Assembly: GCF_016903815.1 (NCBI RefSeq)
Contig: NZ_CP069973.1
DNA: 64,000 nt
Origin: Escherichia coli
Lineage (GTDB): Bacteria; Pseudomonadota; Gammaproteobacteria; Enterobacterales; Enterobacteriaceae
Reading direction: 5' to 3' (one strand)
Part shown: positions 11,424-47,916 of the stretch, in pieces
How positions within the stretch are numbered: the stretch's first letter is position 1
Layout: every line of letters starts with the position of its first letter
Position numbers and translations under genes: made by a program
Notes under the pieces: generated by a model
The model's input: the letters and a program-made list of their open reading frames with translations, nothing else
Told to the model about the DNA's origin: nothing
Database searches by the model: none

Positions 11424-11429
11424 ATTTAT

Positions 11430-12689: not shown

Positions 12690-12782
12690 GTTTCTTTTGT
12701 TAGTTCGCTCTAAGCCTCAACAGACATAGGTGTTCATTCCCTTTTCAAGGGGATGAACACCTACCTGAACATAAACATTAAT

Positions 12783-13178: not shown

Positions 13179-13347
13179 TGTATATTCCAATTTATATAAA
13201 GAGAGATTTTTTGATAACGGAAATCAAGATTTAGCAAAATAAATACCATCGCCATCAACCTCACCTCATAAAGTCAGTAAATACAAATGAGAACAAGGTG
13301 ATTTCGTGATAATAATTGCATGAATTACACAACTTGAATGAAGATAA

Positions 13348-14022
13348 TCAATATGTATTAATTGTTATGTTGTTTTTATACTCCTCTATCCCCTCCTGAA
13401 CATCCTCATGAAAACTAACCGCATTATCATCCATAAACACAATGGCCACATCGCAAAACTCTTTCAATGAATTCAAACTATGTGAAACCATTAAAAAACT
13501 AGATTCTTTATGCCTTTCTTTAAACAATTGAGCGCACTTTTCTTTAAACCTGGCATCACCGACCGCCGTTACTTCATCGACGATATAATAATCAAACTTA
13601 AATGCCATGCTTAAACCAAAGCCCAGGCGAGATCGCATACCTGATGAGTAAGTTTTAATCGGCATATCAAAGTACTTACCGAGTTCGGCAAATTCTTCGA
13701 CAAACTCAATTTTCTCTTTCAGTTCTTCTTGCTTCGCGTATAACCGCGCAACAAATTTTACGTTTTCGCGTCCGGTTAAACTTCCCTGAAATCCACCTGC
13801 GAGGCCGACTGGCCATGATATTGTTTTATTAGTGATGATCTTTCCACTGTCGGGGCGGTCAATGCCGCCAATCATTCTCAGTAACGTTGATTTACCCGCT
13901 CCGTTGCGACCAATAAAGGCAACACTTTTTCCTGAAGGGATTTCAATATTTAAATCCTTAAAGACATAGTGTCGACCCGTTGGCGTGCGATAGGACTTCG
14001 TCAAATTCTCAATCTTAATCAT
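13348..14022 (-). CDS. kpsT: Capsule ABC transporter ATP-binding protein KpsT
   Basis: 224 aa ORF; Walker A GRNGAGKST, ABC signature YSSGMRSRLGF, Walker B YYIVDE; ATGA overlap with kpsM. Confidence 0.92.
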   Translation of the reverse strand: MIKIENLTKSYRTPTGRHYVFKDLNIEIPSGKSVAFIGRNGAGKSTLLRMIGGIDRPDSGKIITNKTISWPVGLAGGFQGSLTGRENVKFVARLYAKQEELKEKIEFVEEFAELGKYFDMPIKTYSSGMRSRLGFGLSMAFKFDYYIVDEVTAVGDARFKEKCAQLFKERHKESSFLMVSHSLNSLKEFCDVAIVFMDDNAVSFHEDVQEGIEEYKNNITINTY

Positions 14023-14795
14023 GATGTCAGCATTGCCTCTTCACGCGTTCGGTATAACGCCAGACCGATGAACAGGGTGACCAGAGTGAACATTGCCAGG
14101 TAGTTCAGACTTACGCCTTCGCTGATATAGCCAGGCATAACAGCCTCGCGGCTTAGCTCCACCACATGTACTAATGGGTTCCAGAGTAGATATGACCAGT
14201 ATTGCTTTGGAATCGAGTGTAGAGGGAACATGATGCAGGAGATGAAATACAGCGGCTTAAGCAGTATCGGCAGAACCTTTTGCATTTCGGGGAAGGTTTT
14301 ACCAACGACCATGAATATTAAGCCGACGCCACATGAAAGAATGATCAGCAGGCTCCAGGTAGCCACAAGTTGTAAAAAATTTGTTATCTCGAAATATTCG
14401 CCTGCCATCCAGACAATGAGCATAAGCAGAATATAAACAGCAACGTAAATCAGTGTCTCAAGCAGTGCGCGTGCAATGATCGTATCGATGGGTTTTACTG
14501 GTCGATAATTAAACAACCCCTGATTCGCTTCAATAGCACCTACAGAACGATTGCTGATACTGCTAAAGATAAAAAAGGGAATCAGGCCATTAAGTAAAAA
14601 CACCGGGAATGAGATGTCTGGCATCGTGCGGTGCATAATGTAACCAAAAATGCCCAACAGTATCAGCAAATGCGCAGAGGGTTCGAGAATCGCCCACAAA
14701 TATCCCAGACGGAACTTACCAAAGCGTGTTCGTATTTCTCGTAGAAATAATGCCTCTACGGTGACTTTCTGGACTTCAAATCCACTTCTTGCCAT
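14019..14795 (-). CDS. kpsM: Capsule ABC transporter permease KpsM
   Basis: 258 aa polytopic membrane protein starting MARSGFEVQKVTVEALFLREIRTRFG; the ORF track extends to 14936 but that extension covers the ops element and is not coding. Confidence 0.9.
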   Translation of the reverse strand: MARSGFEVQKVTVEALFLREIRTRFGKFRLGYLWAILEPSAHLLILLGIFGYIMHRTMPDISFPVFLLNGLIPFFIFSSISNRSVGAIEANQGLFNYRPVKPIDTIIARALLETLIYVAVYILLMLIVWMAGEYFEITNFLQLVATWSLLIILSCGVGLIFMVVGKTFPEMQKVLPILLKPLYFISCIMFPLHSIPKQYWSYLLWNPLVHVVELSREAVMPGYISEGVSLNYLAMFTLVTLFIGLALYRTREEAMLTS

Positions 14796-15855
14796 TTGAT
14801 GATGTGATCCTAATCTCTTCAGGTACGCTACCGCCCCTGGCTTAACAGCTACCAATACACTGGAGGTAATACTTGACTTGTTTGTAACTGGATAAAATTC
14901 ATTCGGACGGCTTGACCTTTTAATAGCCAAAAACAATTTCAGCAGAAATTATTTCCGCAGGGATAAATAGATCTATTTCCGTCTCGTTTCTTCTAATCCA
15001 TTCTTCAGGCATGAATGTATTCGGTCTTCTGGTAATTTCAGAAAACTGGCCGTTTTAGAATGCAGAGTTAATTTCTCAGGAAATTATTTTTTGTGATTAC
15101 TGTTAACTACTTGATTATAATATCCCCTATGGATTTTATGCGTAACAATACCTACAATCTGTTTCAAACCAGAACGCACGCGATTGATTACCAATAAATT
15201 GTTCACCGAGAAACTATTTCCCTATTTAAAATTCACTCGTGTACTTCTTATTTATATCTACAGCCCCCTCTTTACAGCCATATTTGTGATTCATATCACA
15301 TTTAAATGGTGTTATTTAAGTCGCATCAATAATCCCGAAGGTAATTATTTTCGTCGATTAAAATATACATCTTGATTATTTTGTGTGTTTATTTTAACCA
15401 GTGTTACAACCAACACCATCCCTCAGTAGATATACCTGAGCAGACATTTCTTAAAATCAACGAATAGTTTCACTGGAAATTATTATGCTTATTTGAAATT
15501 CCCTTTCTGATTATCTCCAGGAATTTTACTAATTTCCAAGCTACACAAAATACAGATCACACAAGAATTATCCTATATGTTTTGGCCTATCAATTGTTAC
15601 TCAATGATTTATTGCAACTATTAATAATCATAATGTGTCAAAACACTTAAGCAACTTTACAGTCTGAGAAAGGTGTCGATTAACGAAGGCTACATGGTGA
15701 AAAACAGGTTCCTTCAGTGTTACCGAATATTCCGTGGTGGTCTGGAGGGAGATAATTCTTGCTACATCGAAACTCAGCCCGGTAAGCGGGTTTGACAGTT
15801 CCGCACTCACCATTGGGCTAAGGGTTATCAGGTGGGGTTAAGGAAATGGCAATAC
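14796..15855 (-). promoter_or_regulatory. kps region 3 promoter and long untranslated leader (capsule-island to backbone junction)
   Basis: About 1 kb AT-rich non-coding region between kpsM and gspM with no convincing ORF; the region 3 promoter is known to lie several hundred bp upstream of kpsM. Exact -10/-35 not assigned. Confidence 0.5.
14824..14835 (-). promoter_or_regulatory. ops-like element (RfaH recruitment site) within a JUMPstart-like leader upstream of kpsM
   Basis: Minus-strand sequence GGCGGTAGCGTA about 30 nt upstream of the kpsM ATG matches the ops core GGCGGTAG; this is the known position for kps region 3. Confidence 0.8.
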
Positions 15856-16392
15856 CTACCCCCGTCCAAATTCCAGTCGCTGCACATTCACCATCCCAGG
15901 CTTCTCACCCGCACTGACATCAATTTGTGTCACCCGCAGCGCATATTTTTCATCCAGTGCGTTTAACCATTTCAGCAGGTCATTAAACACCACAGGTTCT
16001 ATCCAGACCTGAATATTCTCCCCACGCTCGGCTATTCGCTTGATGACCACAGAGTGCACGGAAGCACTATCGCTGATGACCCGCGATACCTGCGCAGGCG
16101 TTGTTGTGGCAGATTTTCGCGCTGCAATAATATCCGGCGCGGCGCTCTTCAGTCGCGCGTTCATCGCCACCAGCTGCTGCAACATCGTCTCCTGTTGCTC
16201 AATCCGTTCGCTCAACGGCTGCCAGATGAGAACGTAATATCCGGCGCTAAACAGGAACACTACCGCTGCCAGTAACATGCCTTTTTCACGCGGAGAACGC
16301 CCCGCCAGGTGTTGTGTCAGCCAGTGTTCGCCACGGCTTAACTGGCGTTCACGCCATTGCTGAAAATAGTGAATAAATTTATCGCGTAACAT
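15856..16392 (-). CDS. gspM: Type II secretion system protein M
   Basis: 178 aa ORF, single N-terminal TM segment, last gene of the gsp operon, translationally coupled to gspL. Confidence 0.85.
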   Translation of the reverse strand: MLRDKFIHYFQQWRERQLSRGEHWLTQHLAGRSPREKGMLLAAVVFLFSAGYYVLIWQPLSERIEQQETMLQQLVAMNARLKSAAPDIIAARKSATTTPAQVSRVISDSASVHSVVIKRIAERGENIQVWIEPVVFNDLLKWLNALDEKYALRVTQIDVSAGEKPGMVNVQRLEFGRG

Positions 16393-16393
16393 G

Positions 16394-17572
16394 TTATTTC
16401 CTCCGCAACGTTACGCCGCCGGAAACCGCATCACCATCTTTCTGTAACGCGTCCTGTTGCACAACATAATCTGCCGCCAGTGCGCTACGCAGTTTGTCGA
16501 AGCTGGCAAAGTTCGCAGCCCGTAGCTGGAGGTGAAGCGTCTGGCGTTTTTGATCAAAGGTGAAACCACGCATTTCGATGTCGGTAAGTGACGCTGATTT
16601 CAGGGTACTGGCGATCGCTGACAATTCTGCGAGCAGCCGGGTATCGTCGGCCTGTGGGCGATATTTTTTCAGCGCCATCGTCACCTGAGAGCGTAAATTC
16701 ACAATCCGCTTCTGCTCCGGGAATAGCGTTAAGAACTGTTTCTCCGCCTGGGTGCGGCTTTGCGCCACCTGTTCGCTGACGCTCCATAACGTCACGCCCC
16801 GTTCCACTACCAGCGCAACCAGAATCAGCAATATCGGCAGAATCATCACCCGCCAGCGCGCCCACTGTTTTCGGTAGCTGACACGAGGCTGCCACGGCCC
16901 TGTTAGCAGGTTCCCTTCCGGTTCGCCATAAGTGGTAATGGCTGGCAGAGCCGTAACGGTCAGGCGTTCGGCGTCCGCACCAGCCCATGCAGATAGTTCT
17001 TCCGGTGCAATGCCGACCACGGTTAGCGAAAGCGGTAAATTCTGCTCATTGAGCTGTGCGCGGAACATGACCGGAGCCAGCGCCCGCCCGGCGCTCCATC
17101 CCCGGCATTCATCGATGCGGCAGATAACCCGTTGCGCATCGCCAGCCATAAACCCACAAGGAATGGACATCCAGTCCGGCGCGACGGTAGCGTGGGTGAT
17201 GCCGTTTGCCTGCAACCATTGCGCAATGTTGCGCATATGCTGCTGGTGAATCACAGCTACGGTTGCCAGTTGCTGGTCGATTTTCAACGGGGCGAAATGC
17301 AGTTCATCGATATCCTGGTTCAGCTCTTCTTCCAGCAAGGCGGGCAGAATCGTCGGTATCTGCTTACGGGGCACATCAGGCAGTTCAACCTGCCAGACGC
17401 TGATCCATTCGCCGGGAATATAGAGTCGAATCGCATCAGTTTGCAGCCATTGCTGGAGACATTCATCAGCAACGTCAGGCCAGATGCCGCACTCCACGTC
17501 GGCGGTACGACGCTGCCAACGGATGGGAGCGGAAGCGCAAAGCGGGAAAAAAATCTCAAGGATGGAACTCAC
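16394..17572 (-). CDS. gspL: Type II secretion system protein L
   Basis: 392 aa ORF with central TM segment (WRVMILPILLILVALVV); operon position. Confidence 0.85.
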   Translation of the reverse strand: MSSILEIFFPLCASAPIRWQRRTADVECGIWPDVADECLQQWLQTDAIRLYIPGEWISVWQVELPDVPRKQIPTILPALLEEELNQDIDELHFAPLKIDQQLATVAVIHQQHMRNIAQWLQANGITHATVAPDWMSIPCGFMAGDAQRVICRIDECRGWSAGRALAPVMFRAQLNEQNLPLSLTVVGIAPEELSAWAGADAERLTVTALPAITTYGEPEGNLLTGPWQPRVSYRKQWARWRVMILPILLILVALVVERGVTLWSVSEQVAQSRTQAEKQFLTLFPEQKRIVNLRSQVTMALKKYRPQADDTRLLAELSAIASTLKSASLTDIEMRGFTFDQKRQTLHLQLRAANFASFDKLRSALAADYVVQQDALQKDGDAVSGGVTLRRK

Positions 17573-18546
17573 TCACTTTCTCCTGTCTGATGCCAGAGAA
17601 CAGAAAAGTGTTGTGGGCCCATGCGGACAATTAACGAATTCATCGTCAGTTCAATCTCATTCACGGTGATATCTGAACGCAGCCAGAAGTAATTGCTGTC
17701 CACGCTCAGGACGGTTTTTAGCTGTTTTTTAGTACGCTCATCGACGTCAGCGAGTAGCGGCTGTGCAAGAAACTGATCGACATCTTCCCAGCCCTTCGCC
17801 GGACGTTGTTGTAATAACACCCGCGCCTGAACAGGGCTTAACCACGGGTCAAACAGCGCCTCAAGAATCACACTTTGCGTGACGTCTAAGGTATTGATGT
17901 TGATTTGCTGGCGGGTCATCGGCAGCGCACAGACCAGCGGTTTCAGTTTTTGATAAAGCCCGGCGTCCATTCCCTGTACCACGCGCATCTCACTGATATC
18001 GGCCAGCGGTTGATTGGCGGCGTAGAACGGCACCGAGCGGGCGAGATACTCGCTGTCTTCACGCCCCAGACGCGTCTGCACGCTGCGGTCTTCGTCAATA
18101 AACTCCCACAGGCTTTCGGCTATCAGTTCGGCCCGATAAGCAGGCACATCCAGGCGCGTGATCAGGGCAATCAGTTGTTGTACCGCGATAGGACGCGACG
18201 CCGTCGTCGGCTGAGCGAGAGCATTCAGGTTAAAGCAGGCCTGTGCGTCACGCAGAGTGACGGCGATTTGCCCCTGCGGCAGTGGGAAAAAACGAGGGCC
18301 GGAAGCCCACGGCTGCGCCAGATGCACGCGCTTTTCATTTTTCAGGCTCAGACTGAGTGCGCTCAACGCCAGGCTTTCCGCACTGGCGCTGTACCACAGC
18401 GCCTGCTGGTACTCCTGCTGGCTGCGCGTTCGCCCAAGTTGTTGCTGCATTCGCCCGGAAAGCGTGATGGTCACCAGCATCATAACCGCCAGCAATACCA
18501 GCACCACGACCAGTGCCATTCCGCGTTTTGGTGGTGAGGTGATCAT
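17569..18546 (-). CDS. gspK: Type II secretion minor pseudopilin K
   Basis: 325 aa ORF; N-terminal hydrophobic segment after MITSPPKRGMALVVVLVLLAVMMLV; overlaps gspJ and gspL. Confidence 0.85.
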   Translation of the reverse strand: MITSPPKRGMALVVVLVLLAVMMLVTITLSGRMQQQLGRTRSQQEYQQALWYSASAESLALSALSLSLKNEKRVHLAQPWASGPRFFPLPQGQIAVTLRDAQACFNLNALAQPTTASRPIAVQQLIALITRLDVPAYRAELIAESLWEFIDEDRSVQTRLGREDSEYLARSVPFYAANQPLADISEMRVVQGMDAGLYQKLKPLVCALPMTRQQININTLDVTQSVILEALFDPWLSPVQARVLLQQRPAKGWEDVDQFLAQPLLADVDERTKKQLKTVLSVDSNYFWLRSDITVNEIELTMNSLIVRMGPQHFSVLWHQTGESE

Positions 18547-19148
18547 GATAATTGCGGCCCGCGTAACAACCAGATGCGTTCAATTTCGCCCCATTGCGGC
18601 GAATGCAGGGTTATGCGTACCGCCACAGGGATCGCCTGTACTGACGACCAGCTCTCCTGCCAGCGCGTGCCGTCGTAGAACTGCAAACGGAGCGAATCCG
18701 CCGGAATCAACTTTTGCATTGTCGGCTTCACGCTGCCTGCTGCGTCGGTCAGCGGCCAGGCTAACCGTTCGAGATAGCCGTCATGAATGCGGTAACCGAC
18801 GGTGAGCAGATTACTGCGTGGCAGACGCATCAACGGGTTAACCACACCGCCGCGCACAAAGCGCATCCCTTCACTCTCAGACGCCAGCACGCCAGCGCCA
18901 GCCAGTAACGCTGGTTCACGCTGGCCCTGATCGTCTCTTACCGGACGCGGCATCATTTGTGTCAGATCGTGGGTCAGAAAACTCATCGTTTGCTGCATGA
19001 GGTTTAGTTTTTGATCGTGTCCGGCGACGGCGCTATTCACGCGCGTGACGCCGTTAGTCACCTGCTGCGCCATCAGTGCCAGCGAGGCAAAAATGGCAAT
19101 TGCCACCAGCATTTCCAGTAACGTGAAACCAGCGCGAGCCCTTCTCAC
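18543..19148 (-). CDS. gspJ: Type II secretion minor pseudopilin J
   Basis: 201 aa ORF; prepilin-type N-terminus RAGFTLLEMLVAIAIF. Confidence 0.85.
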   Translation of the reverse strand: MRRARAGFTLLEMLVAIAIFASLALMAQQVTNGVTRVNSAVAGHDQKLNLMQQTMSFLTHDLTQMMPRPVRDDQGQREPALLAGAGVLASESEGMRFVRGGVVNPLMRLPRSNLLTVGYRIHDGYLERLAWPLTDAAGSVKPTMQKLIPADSLRLQFYDGTRWQESWSSVQAIPVAVRITLHSPQWGEIERIWLLRGPQLS

Positions 19149-19516
19149 TGTTGGCCTCCCACGGCGCTAAACCAGGCGCGTCGTGACTGAATCACCGGCG
19201 AAAAGTCTTCGTGAAGGCTGACTTCAATATCCACCGCCTGGAGCAGCGCGTTGCCTGTACTCAGCGGTGTGGTTCGCCAGTACCAGCGGCTTCCTGCCAT
19301 ATCGCTCTCGCCCTGATGCCTGACCGCCCGCTGCTCGCGGGTCATCAGGTAGAGCAGCGCGGTCTGGTTTTCAGCCACCCACCCCGCTACCGTTTTTTCC
19401 TCAAGAACGTGCTGATTACTCAGCGCGCCGCTGGCAATCTGTAACACCGCCGTGGCAGCCAGCGCAAAAATCGCCAGCGCGAGCATCACTTCCAGCAAGG
19501 TAAATCCGCGCTTCAT
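19145..19516 (-). CDS. gspI: Type II secretion minor pseudopilin I
   Basis: 123 aa ORF; prepilin-type N-terminus KRGFTLLEVMLALAIF. Confidence 0.85.
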   Translation of the reverse strand: MKRGFTLLEVMLALAIFALAATAVLQIASGALSNQHVLEEKTVAGWVAENQTALLYLMTREQRAVRHQGESDMAGSRWYWRTTPLSTGNALLQAVDIEVSLHEDFSPVIQSRRAWFSAVGGQQ

Positions 19517-20076
19517 CGCATCCTCTCATCACATTGATTGAGGGATAACGCGCCATCGTGTGCCAGTTTTACCGCCCAACATGCGTTTTGCGCCGCCGAG
19601 TAGAAGCGCAGCGTAAACGGCGTGGCGGGTTCAAAAGGCGAAAAACGGATCTGCGGCGTCTTCTTTTTCGCCTCTTTTTGCAGCTCCAGTTCAATATCGT
19701 GCAGCGTCAGGCGACGACGCTGCAGCTCCAGCGCATATTCCTTCTGCCAGATATCACTTCCGGGTTGTAACAGCATCTGCACCTGTTTCGGCACCGTAAC
19801 CTGTGCCGATAACCGGGTCGCAGAAACGGGCAACCACTGCCCCTGACGACGCTGCATAAACTGGTATCCCGGCGGGTCGATTAGTACACCGAGTGTCTGC
19901 CCTTCGATCACTGCCCTGTCTTTAAACTGCGCAAAGCGAGTCAGAAAATCCTGCGCCGCTTTTTTCGCGGGCGATTCAGAATCGGTCGCAAAAGTCTGCA
20001 CCACGCCCGCACTGGCAAGGCCGATAAGGAAAATCACCAGCATGATTTCCAGAAGTGTGAATCCGCGTTCAGGCAC
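19513..20076 (-). CDS. gspH: Type II secretion minor pseudopilin H
   Basis: 187 aa ORF; prepilin-type N-terminus ERGFTLLEIMLVIFLIGL. Confidence 0.85.
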   Translation of the reverse strand: MPERGFTLLEIMLVIFLIGLASAGVVQTFATDSESPAKKAAQDFLTRFAQFKDRAVIEGQTLGVLIDPPGYQFMQRRQGQWLPVSATRLSAQVTVPKQVQMLLQPGSDIWQKEYALELQRRRLTLHDIELELQKEAKKKTPQIRFSPFEPATPFTLRFYSAAQNACWAVKLAHDGALSLNQCDERMR

Positions 20077-20079
20077 TGA

Positions 20080-20535
20080 TTACTGAAACTCCTGCAAATT
20101 CCAGTTACCGATATCTGCGCCAGCGCCCTCCCCGTTTTCCTGACCATCTGCCCCCAGGGTATAAACATCAAACAGTCCTTTTTCACCCGGGCTGAGATAC
20201 TGATAATCATTGCCCCACGGATCTTTTGGCAGTCGTTTAATGTATCCACCGGTACGGTAGTTGCGGGAGTCCGCCATATTGGCCGGTTGCTGGATCAGCG
20301 CCTCAAGCCCCTGCTCGGTAGTCGGATAACGCCCGTTATCCAGTCGGTACATATCCAGCGCATTCTCCAGCGCCACGATATCGCTGATGGCTTTTTGCCG
20401 ATCGGCTTTCTCTTTGTTGCCCAGCAGGTTAGGCACCACCAGACTTGCCAGGACGCCAAGAATAACAATCACCACCATCACTTCCAGCAGGGTAAAACCT
20501 GCCCGTGGTTTTTGTGTGCGGGATAACGAATTCAT
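20080..20535 (-). CDS. gspG: Type II secretion major pseudopilin G
   Basis: About 151 aa from MNSLSRTQKPRAGFTLLEVMVVIVILGVLA; classic prepilin cleavage/methylation motif; the ORF track start at 20562 is probably an upstream extension. Confidence 0.88.
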   Translation of the reverse strand: MNSLSRTQKPRAGFTLLEVMVVIVILGVLASLVVPNLLGNKEKADRQKAISDIVALENALDMYRLDNGRYPTTEQGLEALIQQPANMADSRNYRTGGYIKRLPKDPWGNDYQYLSPGEKGLFDVYTLGADGQENGEGAGADIGNWNLQEFQ

Positions 20536-20551
20536 GTGATAACTCCGTAAA

Positions 20552-21775
20552 TTACATTCCAACCATATTGTTCAGTTGCAGCATCGGCTCGAGGATGGCG
20601 ATGACGATAAACAGCACCACGCCCGCCATCATCACCACCAGCGCCGGTTCAAACAGCCCTAACGCCAGCCCCACCTGGGTATCAAATTCCCGTTCCTGGT
20701 TGACTGCGGCCTGCTCAAGCATGGTTTCCAGTTCGCCGCTCTGTTCGCCGGAGGCGATCATGTACAGCATCATCGGCGGGAACAGGCGCAACTCCGCCAG
20801 CGCAGCGCGCAGACTGCTTCCTTCGCGGACGCGATCTGCCGCCAGCAGCAGTTGTTGTTCGACATAACGATTTGCCGACACGGCGGCGGCGGTCTGAATG
20901 CCTTCCAGCAGCGGAACACTGCTGGCGGTGAGGATGCTTAATGTGCGGGAAAAACGCGCCGTATTCAGTCCGCGCGCAACACGCCCCGTCACGGGCAAAC
21001 GCAGCAAGGTTTTATCCCAGCGCAGGCGCATCGCAGGATTTTTGAGTAGCCGTTGCCCCAGCACCAGAAGCCCCAGCAAACCCGCCAGCCAGTACACGCC
21101 GCTGGCCTGTAACGCGTCGCTCATGGCGATGAGCGTGCGGGTGGAGGCAGGCAGCGCGTGTCCGAGATGATCAAACTGTTCGATGATTTTCGGCACCACT
21201 GACGTCAGCAAAATAGTGACTACGCCCGTTGCCACCACCAGCAATACCAGCGGATAAAGCATGGCCTGCAGCAGGCGAGATTTCAGGCGCTGTCGCTGTT
21301 CGGTGTAATCCGCCAGGCGATTGAGCACCACGTCGAGATGCCCGGATTTTTCACCGGCAGCAACCATCGAACAAAACAGAGAATCAAAGACGCGGGGATG
21401 TTCGCGCAGGCTGTCCGACAGGGTGTAACCTTCCTGAATCCGGCTGCGCAGCGCCATTCCGAGGCTTTTTACATGCAGTTTTTCACTTTGCTCACTGACC
21501 GCCTGTAAGCAGGTTTCCAGCGGCATTGCTGCCTGTACTAATGTTGCCAGTTGGCGTGTGAACAGCGCCAGATCTGCCGCCGCCACGCGACGATGTGCGT
21601 GCCGCCGACGCTGCAACATCCCCCCTGCCGATGCATTCATCCGGGCTTCAATGTGCACGGGAATGAGGTCTTTACCACGCAACAATTGACGGGCATGACG
21701 CGCGGAATCCGCCTCAATCATGCCTTTGGTTTTGCGACCATTACGCTCCAGCGCCTGATAGTAAAACAGTGCCAT
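20552..21775 (-). CDS. gspF: Type II secretion inner-membrane platform protein F
   Basis: 407 aa polytopic membrane protein; operon position between gspE and gspG. Confidence 0.88.
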   Translation of the reverse strand: MALFYYQALERNGRKTKGMIEADSARHARQLLRGKDLIPVHIEARMNASAGGMLQRRRHAHRRVAAADLALFTRQLATLVQAAMPLETCLQAVSEQSEKLHVKSLGMALRSRIQEGYTLSDSLREHPRVFDSLFCSMVAAGEKSGHLDVVLNRLADYTEQRQRLKSRLLQAMLYPLVLLVVATGVVTILLTSVVPKIIEQFDHLGHALPASTRTLIAMSDALQASGVYWLAGLLGLLVLGQRLLKNPAMRLRWDKTLLRLPVTGRVARGLNTARFSRTLSILTASSVPLLEGIQTAAAVSANRYVEQQLLLAADRVREGSSLRAALAELRLFPPMMLYMIASGEQSGELETMLEQAAVNQEREFDTQVGLALGLFEPALVVMMAGVVLFIVIAILEPMLQLNNMVGM

Positions 21776-23268
21776 TACGCCTCCATGGTTACCCGCAGAA
21801 CTTCATCGAGAGAGGTTTCTCCGGCGAGCACTTTCTCAATGCCATTGCTGCGGATGCCCGCAGAGTGTTGCCGGACATAACGTTCCAGCTCCAGTTCCCC
21901 GGCCTGACGGTGGATCAAATCACGCAATGTGGCGTCCACCACGATCAACTCATGGATGGCAGTACGCCCGCGAAAACCTTTGTGATTACAGGCGGGACAG
22001 CCCTGTGGATGGTACAGAGTGACGGTACGGGCGTCGGTAATTCCCAGCAGGCGTTTTTCTTCGTCAGTGGCAGGCAGGGCCTGGCGGCAGTCGGGGCACA
22101 GCGTACGGACCAGTCGCTGCGCCATCACGCCCGTCAGACTGGAAGAGAGCAGGAAAGGCTCTACCCCCATATCCTGCAAACGCGTAATCGCCCCCACCGC
22201 CGTGTTGGTATGCAGCGTGGAAAGGACCAGGTGTCCGGTAAGTGAAGCCTGGACGGCGATTTCTGCGGTTTCGGTATCGCGGATTTCACCGACCATCACT
22301 ACATCCGGGTCCTGACGCAAAATCGCGCGCAGGCCACGGGCGAAGGTCATGCCGACGCGGGTGTTAACCTGTGTCTGACCGATCCCTTCAATCATGTATT
22401 CGATGGGATCTTCAACCGTGAGAATGTTGCGCGAATGGTTGTTCAGCTCCTGCAATCCGGCGTACAGCGTGGTGCTTTTGCCGGAACCTGTCGGCCCCGT
22501 CACCAGAAAGATGCCGTGCGGTTTGTGTAACAGCTGGCGCAACTGCGCAGTCAGTTCGTGACTTAAACCCAGACGCTCCAGCGTCAGGCGGGCCTGGTTT
22601 TTGTCCAGCAGTCGCAGCACCACGCGCTCGCCCCAGGCGGAAGGCATGGTGGAGACGCGCACGTCGATCGCCCGACCGCCCAGCAGCAGCGCAATACGGC
22701 CATCCTGTGGTACGCGCTTTTCGGCGATATCCAGACGCGCCATCACCTTGATACGCGAGACCAGCAGCGAGGCCAGCTTGCGACCGGGGCGCAACATTTC
22801 ATGTAATGTGCCGTCAACACGAAAACGGATCACCAGACTCTTTTCAAACGTCTCGATGTGGATATCCGAAGCGCCTTCTTTAATCGCCTCTGCCAGCATG
22901 GCGTTGATCAGTTTGATGATCGGCGCATCGTCGTCACTTTCCAGCAGATCTTCCGTTTCCGGCAGTTCTTCTGCGAGGGTAAAAAAGTCCTCGGCAGAAC
23001 CGAGATCTTCCATCAGTTGGCGAGCCTCGGAAGAGTCCCGCTGCCAGACCGCATTCAGCCGCTGTTCAAATTCGGCTTCGTCGATTTGCCGCAGCGTAAA
23101 GGGCGCGTTCAGCCCCCGCTGCAGCTCCTGCAAAACAGAGAGCGACAACGGATGAACATGGAGGATCTCCAGCGACGCTTCGCACCATGCCACCAGGCTA
23201 AACCGACGGCTGAAACTGTAGGGCAGACGCACGGTGTTAGCAGTGGTTTCCTGTGCTACAGGCACCAT
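21775..23268 (-). CDS. gspE: Type II secretion ATPase E
   Basis: 497 aa ORF; Walker [11 protein letters not shown]-terminal tetracysteine motif (CPDC...CPAC). Confidence 0.9.
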
Positions 23269-25328
23269 TAACGCGTTCTCCCGGCATTGAGGAATGCGCG
23301 AACTTCCGGCGGTAAGGCCTGGTTTTGCGCTGGCAGTACCGGCTGCGCGGTGTGCGGCATCAGGCTTAAGCCTTGCTCATCGCAGTAGATTTGCTCGGCG
23401 CGCATGTAGTTATATTTGCGCTGCGACACGCCGTCTGCCGCCATACCGTCACGCAGAATGGTCGGGCGGATAAACACCATCAGGTTACGTTTTTCTTTTT
23501 TATCCGCCGTCGATTTAAACAGGTTACCAATCAACGGGATATCGCCCAGCAGCGGCACTTTCGCCACGCTTTCTCCTGCCTGATCATCCATCAGACCGCC
23601 AAGCACAATCAGCTCGCCATCGTTAGCCAGCACGGTGGTCTTCAGTTTGCGCTCACCAAACACGACGTCGAGGCTGGTCTGTCCTTCCACCTTCGAGACT
23701 TCCTGCTCAATCACCATCTGTACCGCGTTTCCTTCGTTAATCTGCGGCGTGACTTTCAGCATGATGCCGACTTTTTTCCTCTCTACCGTATTGAAAGGAT
23801 TGCTGTTATTGGAGCCAACGGTAGATCCAGTTAATACCGGAACGTCCTGGCCCACCATGAAGAAGGCTTCCTGGTTGTCCAGCGTGGTGATGCTCGGCGT
23901 GGAGAGCACGTTAGAGCTGGAGTCGTTTTTAACCGCCTGCACCAGCGCCATCCAGTCGCCTTTCACCACACCAACCGCCGTACCGCTAAAGCCGGAAAGA
24001 AGCTGAGCAAGCGTGGAGAGATCGCCGTTAGTATCCGGATTTATGGTGGTAGCGCCGTTTTCACTGATTACCGTCGAGCCTTTCTGCGGTTTCGCCTGAG
24101 AAATGGCTGCCCCCAGCGTGCCAATAGGGATCTGCGTACCGTTAGCAAACTGCATTAATCCGGCATCTTTCGACGCCCACTGCACGCCGAAGTTGATATT
24201 GCTGCCTTCAGCAACTTCCACGATCAACGCCTCGACATGCACCTGAGCACGGCGAATATCCAGTTGTTCAATCACGCTTTGCAGCGACTGCATGATGTCC
24301 TGCGGCGCGGTAACAATCAGGGCATTACTGTGTTTGCTGGCGGCGATGGAGACAACCTCACGCCCGCTACCGACCGTGCCTTCCGCCTCTTCTTTAGCCG
24401 CCGTGAGCGTACCGCTGACCTGCTTCAGTACATCGACCAGATCTTCGGCTTTGCTGTATTTGAGATAGAAAACCTGGCTGTTGCCGCTGCGCTCCATTTC
24501 TGAGTCCAGGCGACGGATCAGACGGCGCATTTTGTCCCGCGTGGCGGGGTCACCACTGACAATCACGCTGTTGGTGCGTTCATCGGCGACAATTTGAGAT
24601 TTCAGCGTTGCTGGCTGGTTCTCGCCGCTGTTTTTGGTCAGGCTTTCCAGCACGCGGGCGATTTCCGAAGCCGAGGCGTTATCCAGCGGGATCACCTCTT
24701 CAGTGCGATTACCCGCGTGATCCACACGCTGGATCACTTCCGTCAGGCGCTCCACAACGGAGGCGCGTCCGGTGAGCATAATCACGTTGGAGGGATCGTA
24801 ATTAACAACGTTGCCTGAGCCTGCGCTGTCGATCATCTGGCGCAGAATCGGTGCCAATTCGCGGACCGACACATTACGTACCGGCACTACTTTGGTGACC
24901 ATTTCATCGCCCGCGTAGTTGTCGCTGCCTTCACCGACCAGCGGCAGTGGCTCGACTTTCGCGGCGCTGGATTTCACCACCTTCAGCACGTCGTTTTCCA
25001 TCGGTACGACGGCATACCCCTGTGCTTCCAGCAGGTTAAGGAATAGCTGGTAATACTGGCGTTCATTGAGCGGAGTCATGGTACGAATACTCACTTTCCC
25101 CTGTACGCCCGGCCCCATAATGATGGTTTTATTAAGGTTAGCGCCGACGGTTTCGATGAACGATTTCAGGTCGGTATCTTTAAAATTGGCGGTGAAAGTG
25201 GCTTCTTCCGCCCAAACCGGTGAACTGCATAATGCCGCTGCCAGCACCAGCGGCAGTAAACGCTTTTTTGTTTTGAGGCCAGTTGTCTTCTTACGCCAGA
25301 CCGACAACGTAATATCACGCCAAAACAC
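23268..25328 (-). CDS. gspD: Type II secretion outer-membrane secretin D
   Basis: 686 aa ORF with signal peptide and secretin-like C-terminal region ([14 protein letters not shown]); operon position. Confidence 0.9.
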
Positions 25329-25357
25329 GATGAATGATTCTCCTGGATTAAATGCGG

Positions 25358-26317
25358 TTAGCGCAGCGCGATGGAAATGTCGTGGCGCGCACCCTTGCGT
25401 AAAACCGTAAGTTGAATGGAATCCATTGAAGGTAACTGCCGCATCAGAGCAATCATTGCTCGTGGATCAGTGAAATCCTGCTGATTTAGCGCAATGGCGA
25501 TATCGCCTTCCCTGAAACCGCTGACATCGAACAGAGAACGATCTGCCCCCGGCTTCACTGCATAACCGACAATCCCCTCCTTACGCACAGGCGTAAGCTG
25601 GATATAGTTAAAAATTTTCTGCGGATCTTTCGCCAGTGCCTGACGCACGGCAGTCGGGATCTCAACTGGCGCACTGACAGCAGGTTCAGCAACAGCTTGC
25701 TTTGCTTCGTCACTGACAGCTTTTTTGTTGGTCACGGCAACGGTGGAACGCTCCTCTTCAGCCAGGCTCAGGCGCTCTATTTTTCCCTGATAGCGCAGCA
25801 TCACATGGTCGCGGTTGATTTCCTCAATCACCGCGTTGTGAGAACCAAGCCGTTCCCCCTGCAAATAGACCTGCTGTTTGCCACCTTCTTCAATAACCGC
25901 GCCAGGTCTGGCACCAAAGGCGATCCCGCGCAGCACCACATTAAGACGTGTTTCTGCCACAGGCACAGGTTCAGGTTGTTTTACCGGTGCGGCGACGGGC
26001 TGATATTTGCCAAACCAGTTTTGCTGGCTGATTAATTGCACGTCATTTTTATCGAACGTTTTTGCATCTGCACGGGGCGGTTTATTCGCCGATGGGGAAA
26101 CCGCCGTATATTCCGCAGAAAAGGAGAAATAGCGCCAGAGTGAATGCGCCACTTTTGCAGAAATAATAAGCAGCATCAGCCAGAACATCGCGCGTACAAT
26201 TTTTCGCAGATGCTCTTTGTCTGTATTAAGAGATTGTCTCTGGTTAAGAGTGTGACGAATTTTTGTCAGCCATTGAATGAGATAAATTCGTGCGTCACGA
26301 AAAACAACCCGCGCCAA
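25358..26317 (-). CDS. gspC: Type II secretion protein C
   Basis: 319 aa ORF with single TM segment near the N-terminus; immediately upstream of gspD. The start codon is uncertain. Confidence 0.75.
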   Translation of the reverse strand: MARVVFRDARIYLIQWLTKIRHTLNQRQSLNTDKEHLRKIVRAMFWLMLLIISAKVAHSLWRYFSFSAEYTAVSPSANKPPRADAKTFDKNDVQLISQQNWFGKYQPVAAPVKQPEPVPVAETRLNVVLRGIAFGARPGAVIEEGGKQQVYLQGERLGSHNAVIEEINRDHVMLRYQGKIERLSLAEEERSTVAVTNKKAVSDEAKQAVAEPAVSAPVEIPTAVRQALAKDPQKIFNYIQLTPVRKEGIVGYAVKPGADRSLFDVSGFREGDIAIALNQQDFTDPRAMIALMRQLPSMDSIQLTVLRKGARHDISIALR

Positions 26318-26334
26318 TTTATATCTACCCGACG

Positions 26335-26745
26335 TTATGCTTTGACTATTCCACAGGTGGTACGATCCAGTTTCCGCTGATACTGGTTACCTGTACGTGT
26401 ATCATTAATCATTATGCTGTAATTAATTCCCTCGGTTATCATTAATTTCACCGTCGGGTCAGCGCACATTTGTCGTTGATAGCTGGTTAAAAAGGCATCA
26501 GGCGTCTGCGTGGTCTGAGCACCCGCTTCGCTGATAATGGTCATTTTTACCGTCGTGCCGCTACTTTGCGCCAGCACTAAGGTATATCCCGCAGATTTAA
26601 TCGGCAGGTTTTGGCTGATATTTTGCGCCTGTTTTTTCGCCAGTAAACTGGCATTTTCATTATGGCTGGCACAGCCACTTAATAATCCTGTAACGCTCAA
26701 CAATAGCGATATTAATACCCTCCCTGGCATTTGTTTTATCGACAT
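26335..26745 (-). CDS. yghG: T2SS-associated lipoprotein (pilotin GspS-beta/AspS, YghG)
   Basis: 136 aa ORF; lipoprotein signal with lipobox (LLSVTGLLSGC); between pppA and gspC. Confidence 0.8.
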   Translation of the reverse strand: MSIKQMPGRVLISLLLSVTGLLSGCASHNENASLLAKKQAQNISQNLPIKSAGYTLVLAQSSGTTVKMTIISEAGAQTTQTPDAFLTSYQRQMCADPTVKLMITEGINYSIMINDTRTGNQYQRKLDRTTCGIVKA

Positions 26746-26810
26746 GGTAAATAATCTCTAAGGTTATTAATAAGAGTTAAAATATCACTTTGATAATGAC
26801 GTTGTTATCA

Positions 26811-27620
26811 TTAAAACAATGCCTGTAGATAAAGTGTTGCTATACCGCCCAGACTTAAACACGGTCCAAAAGGCAGTGTGGTTGATCCTCTTTTTGTAAT
26901 AACGGCATATATCAGGCCGCAGCATGAGGCGATTAAAGCAACGTTGGGCAGTGATAACGCCCCCACCCAGCCACCTAAAGCGGCGAAGAGTAATACATCG
27001 CCCATGCCTAATGCTTCTTTACGCAGAACTATTCCGGCTATCCAGCGCAGGGAGTAAAAAGTGATAAACCCCACCAGGACGCCGGTGACTGCGTCTTGTA
27101 GCGTTAACGGACTCTGTTGCGCCCATGCCGCAATCAGCCCGGTCCACAATACGCCCTGAGTAAAAACATCGGGCAGCCATTGGTTGTCGAGGTCGATGAT
27201 GCTCGCGGCAATCAGCCACGCGGATAATATCATCACCGCCAGTCCCCATCCACTTTCTGGCCACACCAGACTCGCCAGCAAAAAAGCAAGTGCTGTCAAT
27301 AACTCAACCAGCGGATAACGCTTGCTGATTTTCGCCTGACAGTCGCGGCAGCGCCCTTTGAGCATCAACCATGAGAGCAGCGGAATATTGTCACGAACGC
27401 GGATAGTCTGCTGGCAATGCGGACAGTGCGAACGCGGTAGCGCAAGGCTTATTTTTGACTGCGTACTCGGCGTTTCACCATGAAACTCCGCCATTTGTTG
27501 GCGCAGCATGATGGGGTAACGCCAAATCACCACATTCAAAAAACTGCCGATGATCAATCCTCCGACGGTTGCCAGTATGGGCATCGCCGCGGGGTATTGC
27601 TGAAAAACATCAAAAAGCAT
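26811..27620 (-). CDS. pppA: Prepilin peptidase (A24 family)
   Basis: 269 aa polytopic membrane protein; tetracysteine motif (CPHCQQ...CRDCQ) typical of prepilin peptidases. Confidence 0.88.
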
Positions 27621-27633
27621 GGTTAAAGGTTAT

Positions 27634-27765
27634 TTGTTGTAATTTGCCGGATGCGGGCCTGCAGGTGTATGCCATATGGCTTTCCTCCAGGCCCGATAAG
27701 ATGGCGCATCGGGCAAATGTGTTAACCCGATGCGCCTTATTTCATGCCGGATGCGGCGTGAACGC
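27634..27765. repeat. REP (repetitive extragenic palindromic) element cluster
   Basis: Intergenic copies of the REP consensus, e.g. GCCGGATGCGGCGTGAACGCCTTATCCGGCCTACA and an inverted partial copy, between pppA and sslE. Confidence 0.8.
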
Positions 27766-27783
27766 CTTATCCGGCCTACAGGC

Positions 27784-30700
27784 TTACTCGGCAGACATCT
27801 TATGCTCGGTAACCTTATTAATGGTTTCCGGCCCCTGTTCCGGTTTCGGCAGCTTGAGCGACGCGAGCGTGTTGTAAGCCGACTGGCTCACACCGCCCTC
27901 GAAGCTCATCTCGCTCGCCCCCGGCAGCTGGTAAGCATTCGCACCTGGATTCCATTTCTTAAAGAACTCCGAAAGATCCGTCTGGGCGACCCAGGAGGCG
28001 CACAGCATCAGCGTGTCGGCAGCGTTACCGTTTGACTCAGCACAGTAATTTCTTTCGCCAAACTTGGTTTTACCAACATCATCGCCGCGTGCTTTACGGT
28101 GCATCAACTGGAACAGGTTCCAGCCTTTCATCCCTTCACGATCGCTGTAGAACGCTGGCAGAGAGCCTTCTGGATACCATTTCTTGATATCAAAGTTTTT
28201 CTCTGCCCATTCCTTCAGTTGTGCGTACATCAGCAGACGGTCACCCGCACCGCCGCGCGCCCATGCCTGACCGTTGCTCTCGTCCAGATATTCCGGCGCG
28301 ACGGTAATGTCGTCAGCGACACGGTTCATCTTACCGAGATAGCGATCCTGCATGTACAGCGCCAGCACGTTGTTCGCCACTTCAGTTGCACCCGGTACGT
28401 TCAGCGGTGTTTCTGCAGCGTTATGACCGACTTCGTGCCAAATCAGCCAGTCGTTCAGCGGCGTCGTCGGCAGCGTGGTGCTGTTCGTCGAGAAGCTGCT
28501 GTTCATTACCGGGTAACCCGAGTGCGCATCACCGATGGAGATCTGCACATCGTTGGCGAAACGATGTTTATGCCCCGTCAATGCTTTATAGGTAAACATC
28601 CGGTGCTTACCGCTTTCGCCATCACGACCGTAGAAGTCATTCATCGAGCTGGCAAAGGTATCCAGATCGTTAGCGAATTCTGCTACACCACCAGTGAAAT
28701 TGCTGGCCTCAAGGTTCTTCTTCGGCGTGGTATAAACGAAAGCGTCTGATTCCAGCTCGCCCAGCGGCGCAGGGGAGTTCAGAGCGTTTTTCCATTCGCC
28801 GTCTTTATAGAACGGCGCTTTTACCACACCAGTAAAGGTGAATTCGGCTGACTCATTCTTTGGGCTGTTGCCCTTGATATAAATCAGACCACCGTAAGGC
28901 ACCTTGAAGGTCACCTTATCATTGGCTTTCAGATCATAGGTTTTCGTCACTTTTGGCGGACGGTTCAGCGCGACTTCATGCTTCTCGCGTCCGGTCAGAT
29001 CGTCGGCCAGCGCCACGGTGACAGTCACAGGAACTGATGCAGTAGACTCAATGGTGACCTCTTTCTGAGCCGGAGCCCACAGGCCAGTAGACTGCATGTT
29101 ACCCGCAAACCATTTGGTCGGGTTCGAGTACAGGCTGATGCTTTCAGTAACCTTCTCACCTTCTGCCGATACCGCTCCCGGATACTTCTCGACATCAACT
29201 TTGATGTTCAGATCCCACCAGGAACGACCCAGCATCAGGCGCGTCAGCGGTTTTTCCATATAGTTGAGCGGATAGCTTGGGTTCATCATGCCTGCTTTGC
29301 TGCTACCGTCACCGTAGATCATGTTGTTATCGACAAGCGATTTTTTCAGATCTGCAGAACACTGCGTGCCTTCGCTATAGGCATTGTTGGCGTAGCAGTT
29401 CAGGAACTCAGTGAACGTTTTAAAGCCCAGCTCGTCATCCTTGTCGTTTTCATAGCGATATTCAATTTTATTCCACAGCCAGACCGACATGTTCTGGTAC
29501 AGACGTTCCAGATCGACGCTGCTCAGACGCTCACCTTTGCGACCATTGGTCCGGAAGTAGAGCTCATGCTGATAAAGACGCTGAATATTGGTGCCTAAAT
29601 CCGCAGCCTGCACCATCGCTTTTGCCGTGTCGGCGTTAAGGCTTAGTTGCGTATACTGTGGAACATACATGCCACCAGTAACCGGAACCCCCGTGCCAGG
29701 ACGGTATTCCAGACAGTTGACCTCGTAGTGGTAGTCAGAATCCTTACACTCTTCCAGCCCAGGGAACGCGTCCAGAATTCTCTTCTTCGCCGCAGCCAGC
29801 AACTCAGGCGTTTTGTAGTCGGCTTCATCAATAAACGCGTATTGAGTTACTTGTTCACCATCAACCTCTTCTTGCCAACTGGCAACTTCCAGCTTCGGTT
29901 TCTTATCAGGTTTGTTATCAATCTGATATTTCCAGGTAACTTCGCCTGTCTCAGAATTAATGGTGTACGGCAGCGCACCTTCCACAACCGGATAACGTTC
30001 ATAAACCCAAATGCCATCCGCTCGGCGCTGGCGCTCGCGGTTCGGATAACCCTGCGGATCGTTATTCACCACCGACTTGTTCAGTGCCATTGACAGACCC
30101 GCGGCATCCAGCAGACGCACAAAGCCAGACGCGCTCTCTTCCTTAAGATTGCTCATCACGTTTTCCATGATCAGCACCGAACCGCCTTTGTTCAGATAGG
30201 CGATCAGATCGGTCACATCCTGCTGGCTCAGCTTCGGTTTGCTGGTATCTGCACGCAGCGGGATTGCATAAGGATCGTTACCCACCTGAGTCACATATTC
30301 AAAGCCGTTAAGGATCAGCAGCGGCATTTCCTGCGGATCGAGATCGCCATAGCTACTTAAATGCTCAACAGAGATGCCCGCAAAATCCGGATGGAAGTCG
30401 AACGCAGCGCTGTTTCCTGTAACCTGACCATGACGTTTAAAATAGACAGTATCCAGGTTGGTGCCTACGGTCATGCTGGCTTTCGCGTCCGGCTTCCATT
30501 TATCGTCGGACAGATAGCGCAGCACGTTCTCCATGAAGTTCTTCATGTCATCCGGGTCGCTGTTGAGCGTACACTGCCCATCTTTATTAACGCCCCCGTT
30601 CCAGCTGTAACCGTTCGGGCAACGCAAAATGCTGTTGTAGTGTGGGTTACCGATAACCATCAGTTTGCCCTCACCGACTTGCCCCAGCGAAATAAACGGC

Positions 30701-41503: not shown

Positions 41504-42268
41504 ATGAAAGATGAACGTCGCCCTATTTGCGAAGTGGTTGCAGAGAGTATCGAACGGTTAATTATCGACGGCGTACTGAAGGTCGGTCAGCCGCTTCCCT
41601 CGGAACGTCGACTGTGTGAAAAGCTCGGCTTCTCACGCTCCGCACTGCGTGAAGGGCTGACCGTGCTGCGCGGGCGCGGGATTATTGAAACGGCGCAGGG
41701 TCGCGATTCTCGTGTCGCACGGCTTAATCGGGTGCAGGACACCAGCCCGCTAATTCATCTGTTCAGCACGCAGCCGCGAACGCTGTACGATCTGCTCGAC
41801 GTTCGCGCATTACTGGAGGGCGAATCGGCAAGGCTGGCGGCAACGCTGGGAACGCAGGCTGATTTTGTTGTGATAACTCGCTGTTATGAAAAAATGCTCG
41901 CCGCCAGTGAGAATAACAAAGAGATTTCGCTGATCGAACATGCGCAGTTGGATCACGCTTTCCATCTCGCCATTTGTCAGGCTTCTCACAATCAGGTGCT
42001 GGTGTTTACGCTGCAATCATTGACCGATCTGATGTTTAATTCAGTGTTTGCCAGCGTAAATAATCTCTACCATCGACCACAGCAAAAAAAGCAGATCGAT
42101 CGCCAGCATGCGCGGATCTACAACGCGGTGTTGCAGCGGCTGCCGCACGTCGCCCAGCGCGCAGCACGCGATCATGTGCGGACCGTGAAAAAGAATCTCC
42201 ACGATATCGAGCTGGAAGGCCACCATTTGATTCGCTCGGCGGTGCCGCTGGAGATGAACCTGAGTTAG
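41504..42268 (+). CDS. glcC: GntR/FadR-family transcriptional activator of the glc operon
   Basis: About 254 aa from MKDERRPICEVVAESIERLI; N-terminal winged-HTH (GntR-type) and FadR-like C-terminal domain; divergent from glcD. Confidence 0.88.
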   Translation: MKDERRPICEVVAESIERLIIDGVLKVGQPLPSERRLCEKLGFSRSALREGLTVLRGRGIIETAQGRDSRVARLNRVQDTSPLIHLFSTQPRTLYDLLDVRALLEGESARLAATLGTQADFVVITRCYEKMLAASENNKEISLIEHAQLDHAFHLAICQASHNQVLVFTLQSLTDLMFNSVFASVNNLYHRPQQKKQIDRQHARIYNAVLQRLPHVAQRAARDHVRTVKKNLHDIELEGHHLIRSAVPLEMNLS

Positions 42269-42274
42269 CTGGTA

Positions 42275-46426: not shown

Positions 46427-46457
46427 TTGTCTTGTTTAAAGGTGTGTTAACGTTTCT

Positions 46458-47878: not shown

Positions 47879-47883
47879 TGTGA

Positions 47884-47916
47884 GCCCGCCGTGGTGTTGC
47901 GCCACGGCGGGTTTAA
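47884..47916 (+). terminator. Rho-independent terminator-like hairpin between convergent genes
   Basis: Perfect 10-bp GC-rich stem CCCGCCGTGG/CCACGGCGGG followed by TTTAATGTT, just after the Spt-like stop and overlapping the stop of the convergent permease gene. Confidence 0.6.

Follow-up and report, generated by a model that had tools for sequence, protein, structure and literature searches.

REP clusters in the sslE-pppA and yghU-hybG spacers, and their absence from the neighbouring kps locus, in an Escherichia coli chromosome

The REP units of Escherichia coli, imperfect palindromes of 30-40 nt, are reportedly of three kinds, Y, Z1 and Z2, and are said to combine into BIME-1, BIME-2 and atypical BIMEs, a description credited to Gilson, Bachellier and Hofnung. 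REPs that lie between cistrons, in malE-malF and similar operons, were reportedly treated by Newbury, Higgins and colleagues in 1987-88. The Y/Z REP family is common to enterobacteria and could move with transferred DNA. In K-12, 584 REPs have been counted, they fall into BIME classes and their copy number varies from locus to locus (Ton-Hoang et al. 2012, PMC3333891); another study gives a figure of 355 for annotated REP elements, of which about 80 % are transcribed (Qian et al. 2015, PMC4550694). In the yjdM-yjdN operon, REP325 shields the message of the upstream gene, yjdM, and attenuates read-through to yjdN in part via Rho; genome-wide, tandem gene pairs containing a REP show upstream-biased expression, while at convergent pairs with a REP both genes are raised; the effects are context-dependent and vary widely (Harris et al. 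2026, bioRxiv preprint 10.64898/2026.03.23.713779).

Here, a stretch of 64,000 nt from E. coli contig NZ_CP069973.1 (the window) was analysed. It is 99.99 % identical to E. coli strain 7/2 (NZ_CP023820.1), with 2 mismatches and one 2-nt indel over the 64 kb, and is laid out as follows.

1-7395, plus strand: kps region 1, partial (kpsF tail, kpsE, D, U, C, S)
7396-13347: kps region 2, GC 0.298, with its genes on the minus strand at 7657-13178
13348-14795: kps region 3, kpsT and kpsM
14796-15855: AT-rich kpsM-gspM spacer, 1.06 kb
14824-14862: JUMPstart element, beyond kpsT/kpsM
15856-27620, minus strand: T2SS-beta genes gspM through gspC, gspS-beta and pppA
27618-27620, minus strand: pppA start codon (ATG), at the downstream end of a 163-nt spacer within the sslE-gsp operon
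27784-27786, minus strand: sslE stop codon (TAA)
27784-32343, minus strand: sslE
past sslE: glcA-glcC, an 8.4-kb segment absent from K-12, yghR-T, pitB, gss, yghU, hybG and the hyb operon
60020-60022, plus strand: stop codon of yghU, which ends at 60022
60145-60147, minus strand: hybG stop codon

Exactly four full REP units are present in the window, in two intergenic clusters, and none was found elsewhere in it. The earlier note on this DNA had placed REPs between pppA and sslE (site 1) and between yghU and hybG (site 2), and the scans agree with it. We read both sites as ordinary members of the REP/BIME family, site 1 as an eroded atypical BIME and site 2 as a BIME-2-type pair, with the absence of REPs from kps a weak marker, and put the probability of this reading at about 0.85. 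As in E. coli REPs generally, the site sequences match the consensus (35/35 for Y, 36/37 for Z2), the units alternate in orientation, are extragenic and multicopy, and copy number varies from strain to strain at each locus, as it does in the REP/BIME family.

When the window was searched with the full-length Y, Z1 and Z2 consensus sequences (blastn-short), the only full-length matches were 27745-27779 (35/35 to Y), 60052-60084 (33/33 to Y, minus strand) and 60096-60132 (36/37 to Z2). A head-and-tail scan that allowed a variable loop of 2-21 nt returned four units at no more than 2 mismatches, adding a Z1-like unit at 27687-27714 (minus strand), and in 30 composition-preserving, locally matched shuffles there were 0 units at up to 3 mismatches and a mean of 0.03 at up to 4. 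The same four units scored 42-61 bits with a covariance model built from 17 units of the window, K-12, E. albertii and Escherichia sp. E1V33 and run with filters off, the next best score being 12.8 bits (E 0.27). A fixed-loop IUPAC REP pattern matched exactly at the Z2 unit 60096-60132 alone, since the loop of Y units is shorter and such a pattern misses them. In the 17 units, pairing is kept in 97 % of stem cells, and G-C, C-G and U-A all occur at the stem pair of columns 5/30, a three-way compensatory change; this pair signature separates the Y, Z1-variant and Z classes. The conserved GTAG/CTAC foot, the context for recognition and cleavage by RAYT, is kept in two of the four units (27745-27779 and 60096-60132) and is CTGG in the other two (27687-27715 and 60050-60084).

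Both clusters are found outside genes and next to gene 3' ends, site 1 between the sslE stop and the pppA start and site 2 between the yghU and hybG stops. In 5425 of 5426 complete genomes, a 441-nt query centred on site 1 matches a median of at least 39 places, and the queries containing either cluster a median of at least 35-39 places (5425/5426 genomes). The presence of REP units at both sites, far beyond chance, is thus confirmed. Two further candidates were rejected: a REP-like match within gspK (18127-18154; 5 mismatches, 8.5 bits) was at chance level (shuffle mean 0.8), and a palindrome 3' of glcA (32793-32819) scored 9.8 bits and is not a REP. No ERIC/IRU primer sites were found in the window. 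The K-12 RefSeq record carries no REP features, and K-12 REPs were placed by scanning; 46 kb of K-12 and 48 kb of window backbone together contain 5 REP loci in 94 kb, in agreement with the published density.

Site 1 occupies the 163-nt spacer at 27621-27783, inside the sslE-pppA-gspS-gspC..M operon. From the sslE end, it comprises the following.

27745-27779, plus strand: canonical Y unit, reading TGCCGGATGCGGCGTGAACGCCTTATCCGGCCTAC; 35/35 to Y, 0 mismatches, 60.9 bits, E 5e-15
27726-27744, plus strand: truncated Z1-like head (CCCGATGCGCCTTAT) and short linker; inverted repeat of 16 nt, 88 % complementary
27687-27715, minus strand: Z1-like variant unit, reading TGCCCGATGCGCCATCTTATCGGGCCTGG; 2 mismatches, 42.1 bits, E 1e-9
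27666-27686: shortened linker from the remnant to the Z1-like unit; two deletions, of 11 and 5 nt, against the long allele
27645-27665, plus strand: remnant of the pppA-proximal Y unit, its head TGCCGGATGCG fused straight to the foot GGCCTGCAGG

Read on the sslE mRNA (minus strand), the Y unit at 27745-27779 begins 5'-GUAGGCCGGAUAAGG..., so that its GTAG starts 4 nt, and its stem 8 nt, past the sslE stop codon. The Z1-like unit follows the pattern GCCCGATGCGCC..CTTATCGGGCC (27687-27714, minus strand), has a C-G pair in place of the T-A of Z1, a compensatory change, and has CCAGG in place of GTAGG in its foot (CTGG in place of CTAC). The truncated head pairs with the head of this adjacent unit, forming a 12-bp stem in the RNA fold, and is conserved in K-12, E. 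albertii and E1V33. In alignments with K-12, E2348/69, E. albertii and E1V33, 18 nt of palindrome are gone from the Y remnant, which retains a 12-nt exact match to the Y head and reaches just 9.4 bits with the covariance model. Though canonical units had been described at this site, that term fits 27745-27779 and not the rest, which consists of a Z1-like variant, a Y remnant and a truncated head. The cluster ends also need correction: 27765 should be 27779, as the unit had been cut 14 nt short, and 60043-60123 should be 60050-60132, end coordinates thus being 9-14 nt short.

BIME-1 elements consist of Y and Z1 with a long L linker that often holds an IHF site (PMC3333891). Site 1 differs in having no IHF consensus, extra units, a Z1 variant with the C-G pair and a Y unit that is largely deleted. 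The ancestral linker between the Y and Z1-like units is approximately 40 nt, and the IHF consensus (WATCARNNNNTTR) was found in none of the spacers of the window, K-12 and E. albertii. Because the linker of no allele contains it, site 1 is classed as an atypical BIME, partly eroded as judged from its sequence. Like site 1, REP325 lies between two co-transcribed tandem genes, but it has six tandem Y/Z2 repeats whereas site 1 has two units, Y and Z1-like, plus fragments.

The sslE-pppA spacer is 129, 139, 147, 155, 163, 194 or 197 nt long among E. coli, and two sharply distinct haplotypes, long and short, coexist in the species. Relative to the 197-nt spacer of K-12, the window is shorter by 18 nt in the Y unit nearer pppA and by 11 and 5 nt in the linker, and the 129-nt alleles retain just the sslE-proximal Y unit. 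The ancestral form is Y, long linker, Z1-like unit, truncated Z1-like head and Y, making the window allele a derived, short one. This cluster has stayed whole in K-12, E2348/69 and E. albertii, and in E1V33 it has been amplified to five units. Hairpin-associated deletions cost the window allele part of its linker and the greater part of its pppA-proximal Y unit.

Site 2 comprises a single pair of units, located where the 3' ends of yghU and hybG converge.

60050-60084, minus strand: Y unit, reading TGCCGGATGCGGCGTGAACGCCTTATCCGGCCTGG; foot CTGG for CTAC; 33/33 to Y, 56.3 bits
60085-60095: head-to-head linker of 11 nt (ATCGTGCACAA) between the Y and Z2 units
60096-60132, plus strand: Z2 unit (TGCCTGATGCGACGCTGCCGCGTCTTATCAGGCCTAC); 36/37 to Z2, 48.8 bits

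The Y unit starts 27 nt past the yghU stop and, on the hybG mRNA (minus strand), the GTAG of the Z2 unit lies 12 nt and its stem 16 nt past the hybG stop. By its unit sequences, site 2 is a pair of the BIME-2 type: it has the inverse Y(-)/Z2(+) arrangement with an 11-nt linker seen in BIME-2 (PMC3333891), but is a single pair and not a tandem array. The site is identical in K-12, with one Y/Z2 pair in each. Its length varies among E. coli genomes (matches to a 401-nt query span 348-544, with longer alleles in some strains), and this fits the published variation of BIME copy number between strains (PMC3333891).

The earlier note had also described kps region 2 and its flanks as without REPs and had taken REP clusters to mark backbone and their absence from kps to fit its recent acquisition. 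Consensus blastn, the head-tail scan and the covariance model all found no REP in kps and its flanks (1-15856), region 2 included, where a REP would have counted against that account; the best matches had E values of at least 6 and are noise. Nor was a REP found in an extra 10 kb of the pheV island upstream in strain 7/2, or in the K5, glycerophosphate-type and two K1 kps loci, where the only REPs were those at the sslE-pppA junction. K-12 homology resumes at 15857, exactly at the gspM stop codon. The presence or absence of REPs might serve by itself as a clock, with a REP indicating long-resident backbone and its lack recent acquisition, a reading that we consider possible but on the doubtful side. 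It predicts the right direction for both loci: E. albertii has the REP-bearing junction too, and REP-free region 2 has a GC content of 29.8 % and occurs in only 60 of 5426 genomes. The same logic has been used genome-wide in Pseudomonas fluorescens Pf-5, where REP-free regions coincide with recently acquired DNA and where a polysaccharide-synthesis locus of atypical composition lacks the host REPs, as kps does here (Paulsen et al. 2005, PMC7416659). However, Pf-5 has >1000 REPs, which gives power at the scale of an island, whereas E. coli has about 300-600, for which 16 kb is too small.

At 284-355 loci per 4.64 Mb, or one REP locus per 13-16 kb, 1.0-1.2 loci are expected in 15.9 kb, and the Poisson probability of finding none is 0.30-0.38, rising to 0.63-0.70 for region 2 alone; these estimates assume an even spread of REP loci, which are in fact unevenly spread. 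Hence, the power of a single locus is close to zero. Among window spacers of at least 40 nt that adjoin a gene 3' end, a REP is present in 0 of 6 in the island and 2 of 8 in the backbone (hand count; one-sided exact p approximately 0.31). Six of the eight backbone spacers thus lack a REP, as does the 8.4-kb stretch at 43378-51766, REPs could ride in on DNA from another enterobacterium, and the REP-bearing operon is itself absent from about 35 % of genomes. When the four other kps loci and the 10 kb of pheV island are pooled, approximately 49 kb of non-redundant DNA contain no REP, with a probability of about 0.02-0.05, which is suggestive only. The pooled loci repeat the conserved regions 1 and 3, which leaves about 49 kb as independent by our own estimate. 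The kpsMT genes are present in 1599 of 5426 genomes and kps adjoins pheV; the low GC content of region 2, its rarity and its pheV-adjacent position are the strong evidence that it is foreign and often exchanged. A GC content of approximately 30 % and K-type-specific gene content are far stronger evidence for acquisition of kps than is the lack of REPs, which agrees with a recent horizontal origin, as had been proposed, but is nearly uninformative for a single locus and carries little weight alone.

The age of the sslE-gsp operon was examined through its relatives. In a scan of the SslE C-terminus against one genome per bacterial species, which is pattern-limited and may miss some relatives, the only close relatives came from Escherichia sp. 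E1V33 (93 %) and E. albertii (89 %), and distant ones (51-56 %) from Enterovibrio, Grimontia and Vibrio. The 197-nt spacer of E. albertii contains Y, Z1-like and Y units, and that of E1V33, of approximately 326 nt, five alternating units, in both cases directly past the sslE stop; the order in the E. albertii contig is glcF-glcG-glcB-glcA-sslE-REP-pppA-gspS-gspC..L. As the same cluster and junction are found in E. albertii, the sslE-pppA REP cluster most likely predates the split of E. coli from E. albertii. Long residence of the T2SS operon, which the earlier note had argued from the REPs within it, is therefore upheld by the sharing of the cluster with E. albertii and E1V33 and by E. albertii synteny; REP presence by itself is no proof of residence because the family is enterobacteria-wide and transferable. 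The term backbone was, however, too strong. The sslE-pppA junction is present in 3534 of 5426 complete E. coli genomes, K-12 has lost 8 kb of the operon, the gsp genes have a GC content of 54.9 % compared to 51.6 % for glc-hyb, and the SslE loci of the Vibrionaceae have neither REPs nor pppA alongside. For these reasons, the comparison suggests that the operon is an old acquisition rather than part of the original backbone, and that its REPs were gained inside an enterobacterial genome.

Alternatively, the REP cluster may have come with the operon from another REP-bearing enterobacterium, or have spread by recombination among Escherichia. The pheV/kps neighbourhood does look recombinogenic, with identity to K-12 rising from 95.7 % to 97.2 % to 99.96 % away from kps, and both the raised GC content of the gsp genes and the coexistence of two sharply different spacer haplotypes would be accommodated. 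Nevertheless, we consider this quite improbable: the pattern-limited scan revealed no enterobacterial donor, close SslE relatives being confined to Escherichia and distant ones to the REP-less Vibrionaceae that lack pppA; E. albertii has glcA and glcB in identical flanking synteny; and the divergence from E. albertii (89 % identity for the SslE C-terminus and 93.5 % for PppA) looks like ordinary divergence between species, a judgement made without reference genes.

That both sites are ordinary REP/BIME members also bears on a match to the Rfam naRNA4 model (RF02564; gathering score 59.5), which site 2 exceeds at 60053-60129 with 92.6 bits on the plus strand and 60.1 on the minus, site 1 falling under the threshold at 43.6 bits. 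On this basis, the yghU-hybG pair, and more weakly site 1, could be supposed to encode a nucleoid-associated RNA resembling naRNA4 and acting with HU in the organisation of the chromosome. However, a single Y/Z2 unit of REP325 served to define naRNA4 (PMC4550694), so the match is expected: the Rfam model is in effect a Y/Z2 BIME unit, both strands match, and the match shows sequence family, not function. Moreover, deletion or overexpression of REP325/naRNA4 does not compact the nucleoid, and REP-REP contacts are HU-independent (bioRxiv 10.64898/2026.03.23.713779), making such a role very improbable.

The 181-nt sslE-pppA RNA, on the sslE mRNA strand, has a predicted fold of -80.2 kcal/mol (z = -6.75) with three hairpins, the Y unit at 27745-27779 being a hairpin in the minimum free energy fold, and both strands of site 2 are predicted to fold with z of -3.3 and -3.7. 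A scan of 27300-28100 found no sigma-70-like promoter and no intrinsic terminator, there being no U-tract as terminator criteria demand, and no T-run follows the REPs at either site; an internal promoter or terminator at site 1 was therefore dropped from consideration. A reading of the palindromes as intrinsic terminators, or as regulatory hairpins specific to their locus, with only a resemblance to REPs, as their stable folds at gene 3' ends might suggest, is refuted by their perfect or near match to the consensus and their tens of copies per genome, in addition to the lack of a U-tract and the empty terminator scan.

As members of the REP/BIME family, the two clusters may act on the transcripts that contain them. 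According to PMC5012682, where Yang 2007 is cited for the statement, sslE is co-transcribed with 13 downstream genes as a polycistronic message, which makes site 1 an intra-operon REP directly after the gene for a secreted substrate. Transcribed REP hairpins would block 3'-to-5' exonucleases and partly attenuate read-through. By analogy, site 1 could raise the message for the secreted substrate, sslE, over those for the 13 downstream machinery genes, a role on which we are evenly balanced. The malE-malF REPs are like site 1 in lying directly after a highly expressed first gene that is needed in excess over downstream genes for membrane machinery. Site 2 would, by the same analogy, shield yghU and hyb transcripts at their 3' ends.

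A REP that lies <16 nt past a stop codon downregulates translation, as the work of Liang, Rudd and Deutscher 2015 is summarised in PMC12306157. The sslE-proximal unit falls within this distance (4 nt to GTAG, 8 nt to the stem), the unit behind hybG is borderline (12 and 16 nt), and that behind yghU, beginning 27 nt past the stop, is outside it. Hence, the sslE-proximal unit, within 15 nt of the stop, may stall terminating ribosomes and lower SslE translation, though this argument by analogy leaves the effect somewhat unlikely. It is less likely still that the alleles, from one unit in 129 nt through the ancestral three in 197 nt to the five of E1V33, form a variable dial of the ratio of SslE to T2SS, which would operate by graded attenuation, graded protection of the mRNA and stop-proximal stalling of ribosomes.

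In many lineages the site 1 cluster has been deleted piecemeal, down to the single unit of the 129-nt alleles, which argues against strong selection on the full structure.

Overall, these are known kinds of element at known positions, and the value of the analysis lies mainly in annotation and in the corrected coordinates. For a single island in E. coli, whether REPs are present gives too weak a signal to date its acquisition. The sslE-pppA spacer is an old REP cluster with several length alleles, inside the operon for a mucinase that is a vaccine candidate and for its secretion system, and offers a concrete, cheap hypothesis for variable SslE expression. Differences in SslE secretion between strains have been reported for UPEC (PMC5012682) and, if the alleles do act as a dial, they would contribute to these differences.

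Identity to E. coli K-12 (comparison sequence L001) across window positions 15857-64000 increases stepwise going away from kps and pheV, from 95.7 % at 15857-17358 to 97.2 % at 25359-43377 and 99.96 % at 51767-64000. As judged from these sequence comparisons, the steps look like a recombination gradient adjoining the capsule locus. The intervening segments are missing from K-12. Breakpoints located using blastn place the first, an 8-kb stretch from inside gspL to inside gspC (17359-25358), in the T2SS-beta locus, and its absence is the known T2SS-beta truncation of K-12. The second (43378-51766, 8.4 kb) is replaced by IS5 in K-12, was found to include no REPs, and has the appearance of an uncharacterised lipid or envelope cluster. 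Its gene content is listed below together with that of kps region 2, which is of a rare type common to only 60 of 5426 complete genomes, and with the Rfam matches.

7657-13178, genes of kps region 2 as annotated: GT29-family glycosyltransferase, CDP-glycerol glycerophosphotransferase, TPR protein, 131-aa protein annotated 'pantoate--beta-alanine ligase', protein annotated 'phage baseplate protein'
14824-14862, minus strand: JUMPstart element upstream of kpsM (Rfam match, 57.1 bits)
34590-34811, plus strand: C0719 sRNA in the glcA-glcB interval (Rfam match, 299 bits)
43378-51766: fatty acyl-AMP ligase, epimerase/dehydratase, acyl carrier protein, serine palmitoyltransferase-like enzyme, LptF/LptG paralogues, YtfJ-family protein, yghQ-like flippase

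Two of the labels in kps region 2 call for comment, as the 131-aa protein is more likely to be a small cytidylyltransferase than a pantoate--beta-alanine ligase, and the phage baseplate label is doubtful.

Immediately 3' of glcA, positions 32793-32819 form a palindrome that is perfect and GC-rich (GCCGGATG...CATCCGGC). Though it has the REP head octamer in common, it scores only 9.8 bits with the covariance model built from 17 REP units, and it is probably a glcA 3' hairpin.

The REP locus in the sslE-pppA spacer is enlarged in Escherichia sp. E1V33 and undergoing erosion in E. coli. In E1V33 the spacer (L003 4054-4379) is approximately 326 nt long and includes five alternating REP units, an arrangement that looks like a tandem duplication of a Y/Z1-like BIME. 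In an E. albertii contig (L023 9878-9991), the public gene call includes a 37-aa ORF that lies wholly within the REP cluster and is almost certainly spurious.

The BIME locus between yghU and hybG also varies in length among E. coli genomes, where the spans matched by a 401-nt query (59900-60300) range from 348 to 544 nt. In some of these genomes the match goes no further than where the Z2 unit ends, suggesting insertions or expansions at this site.
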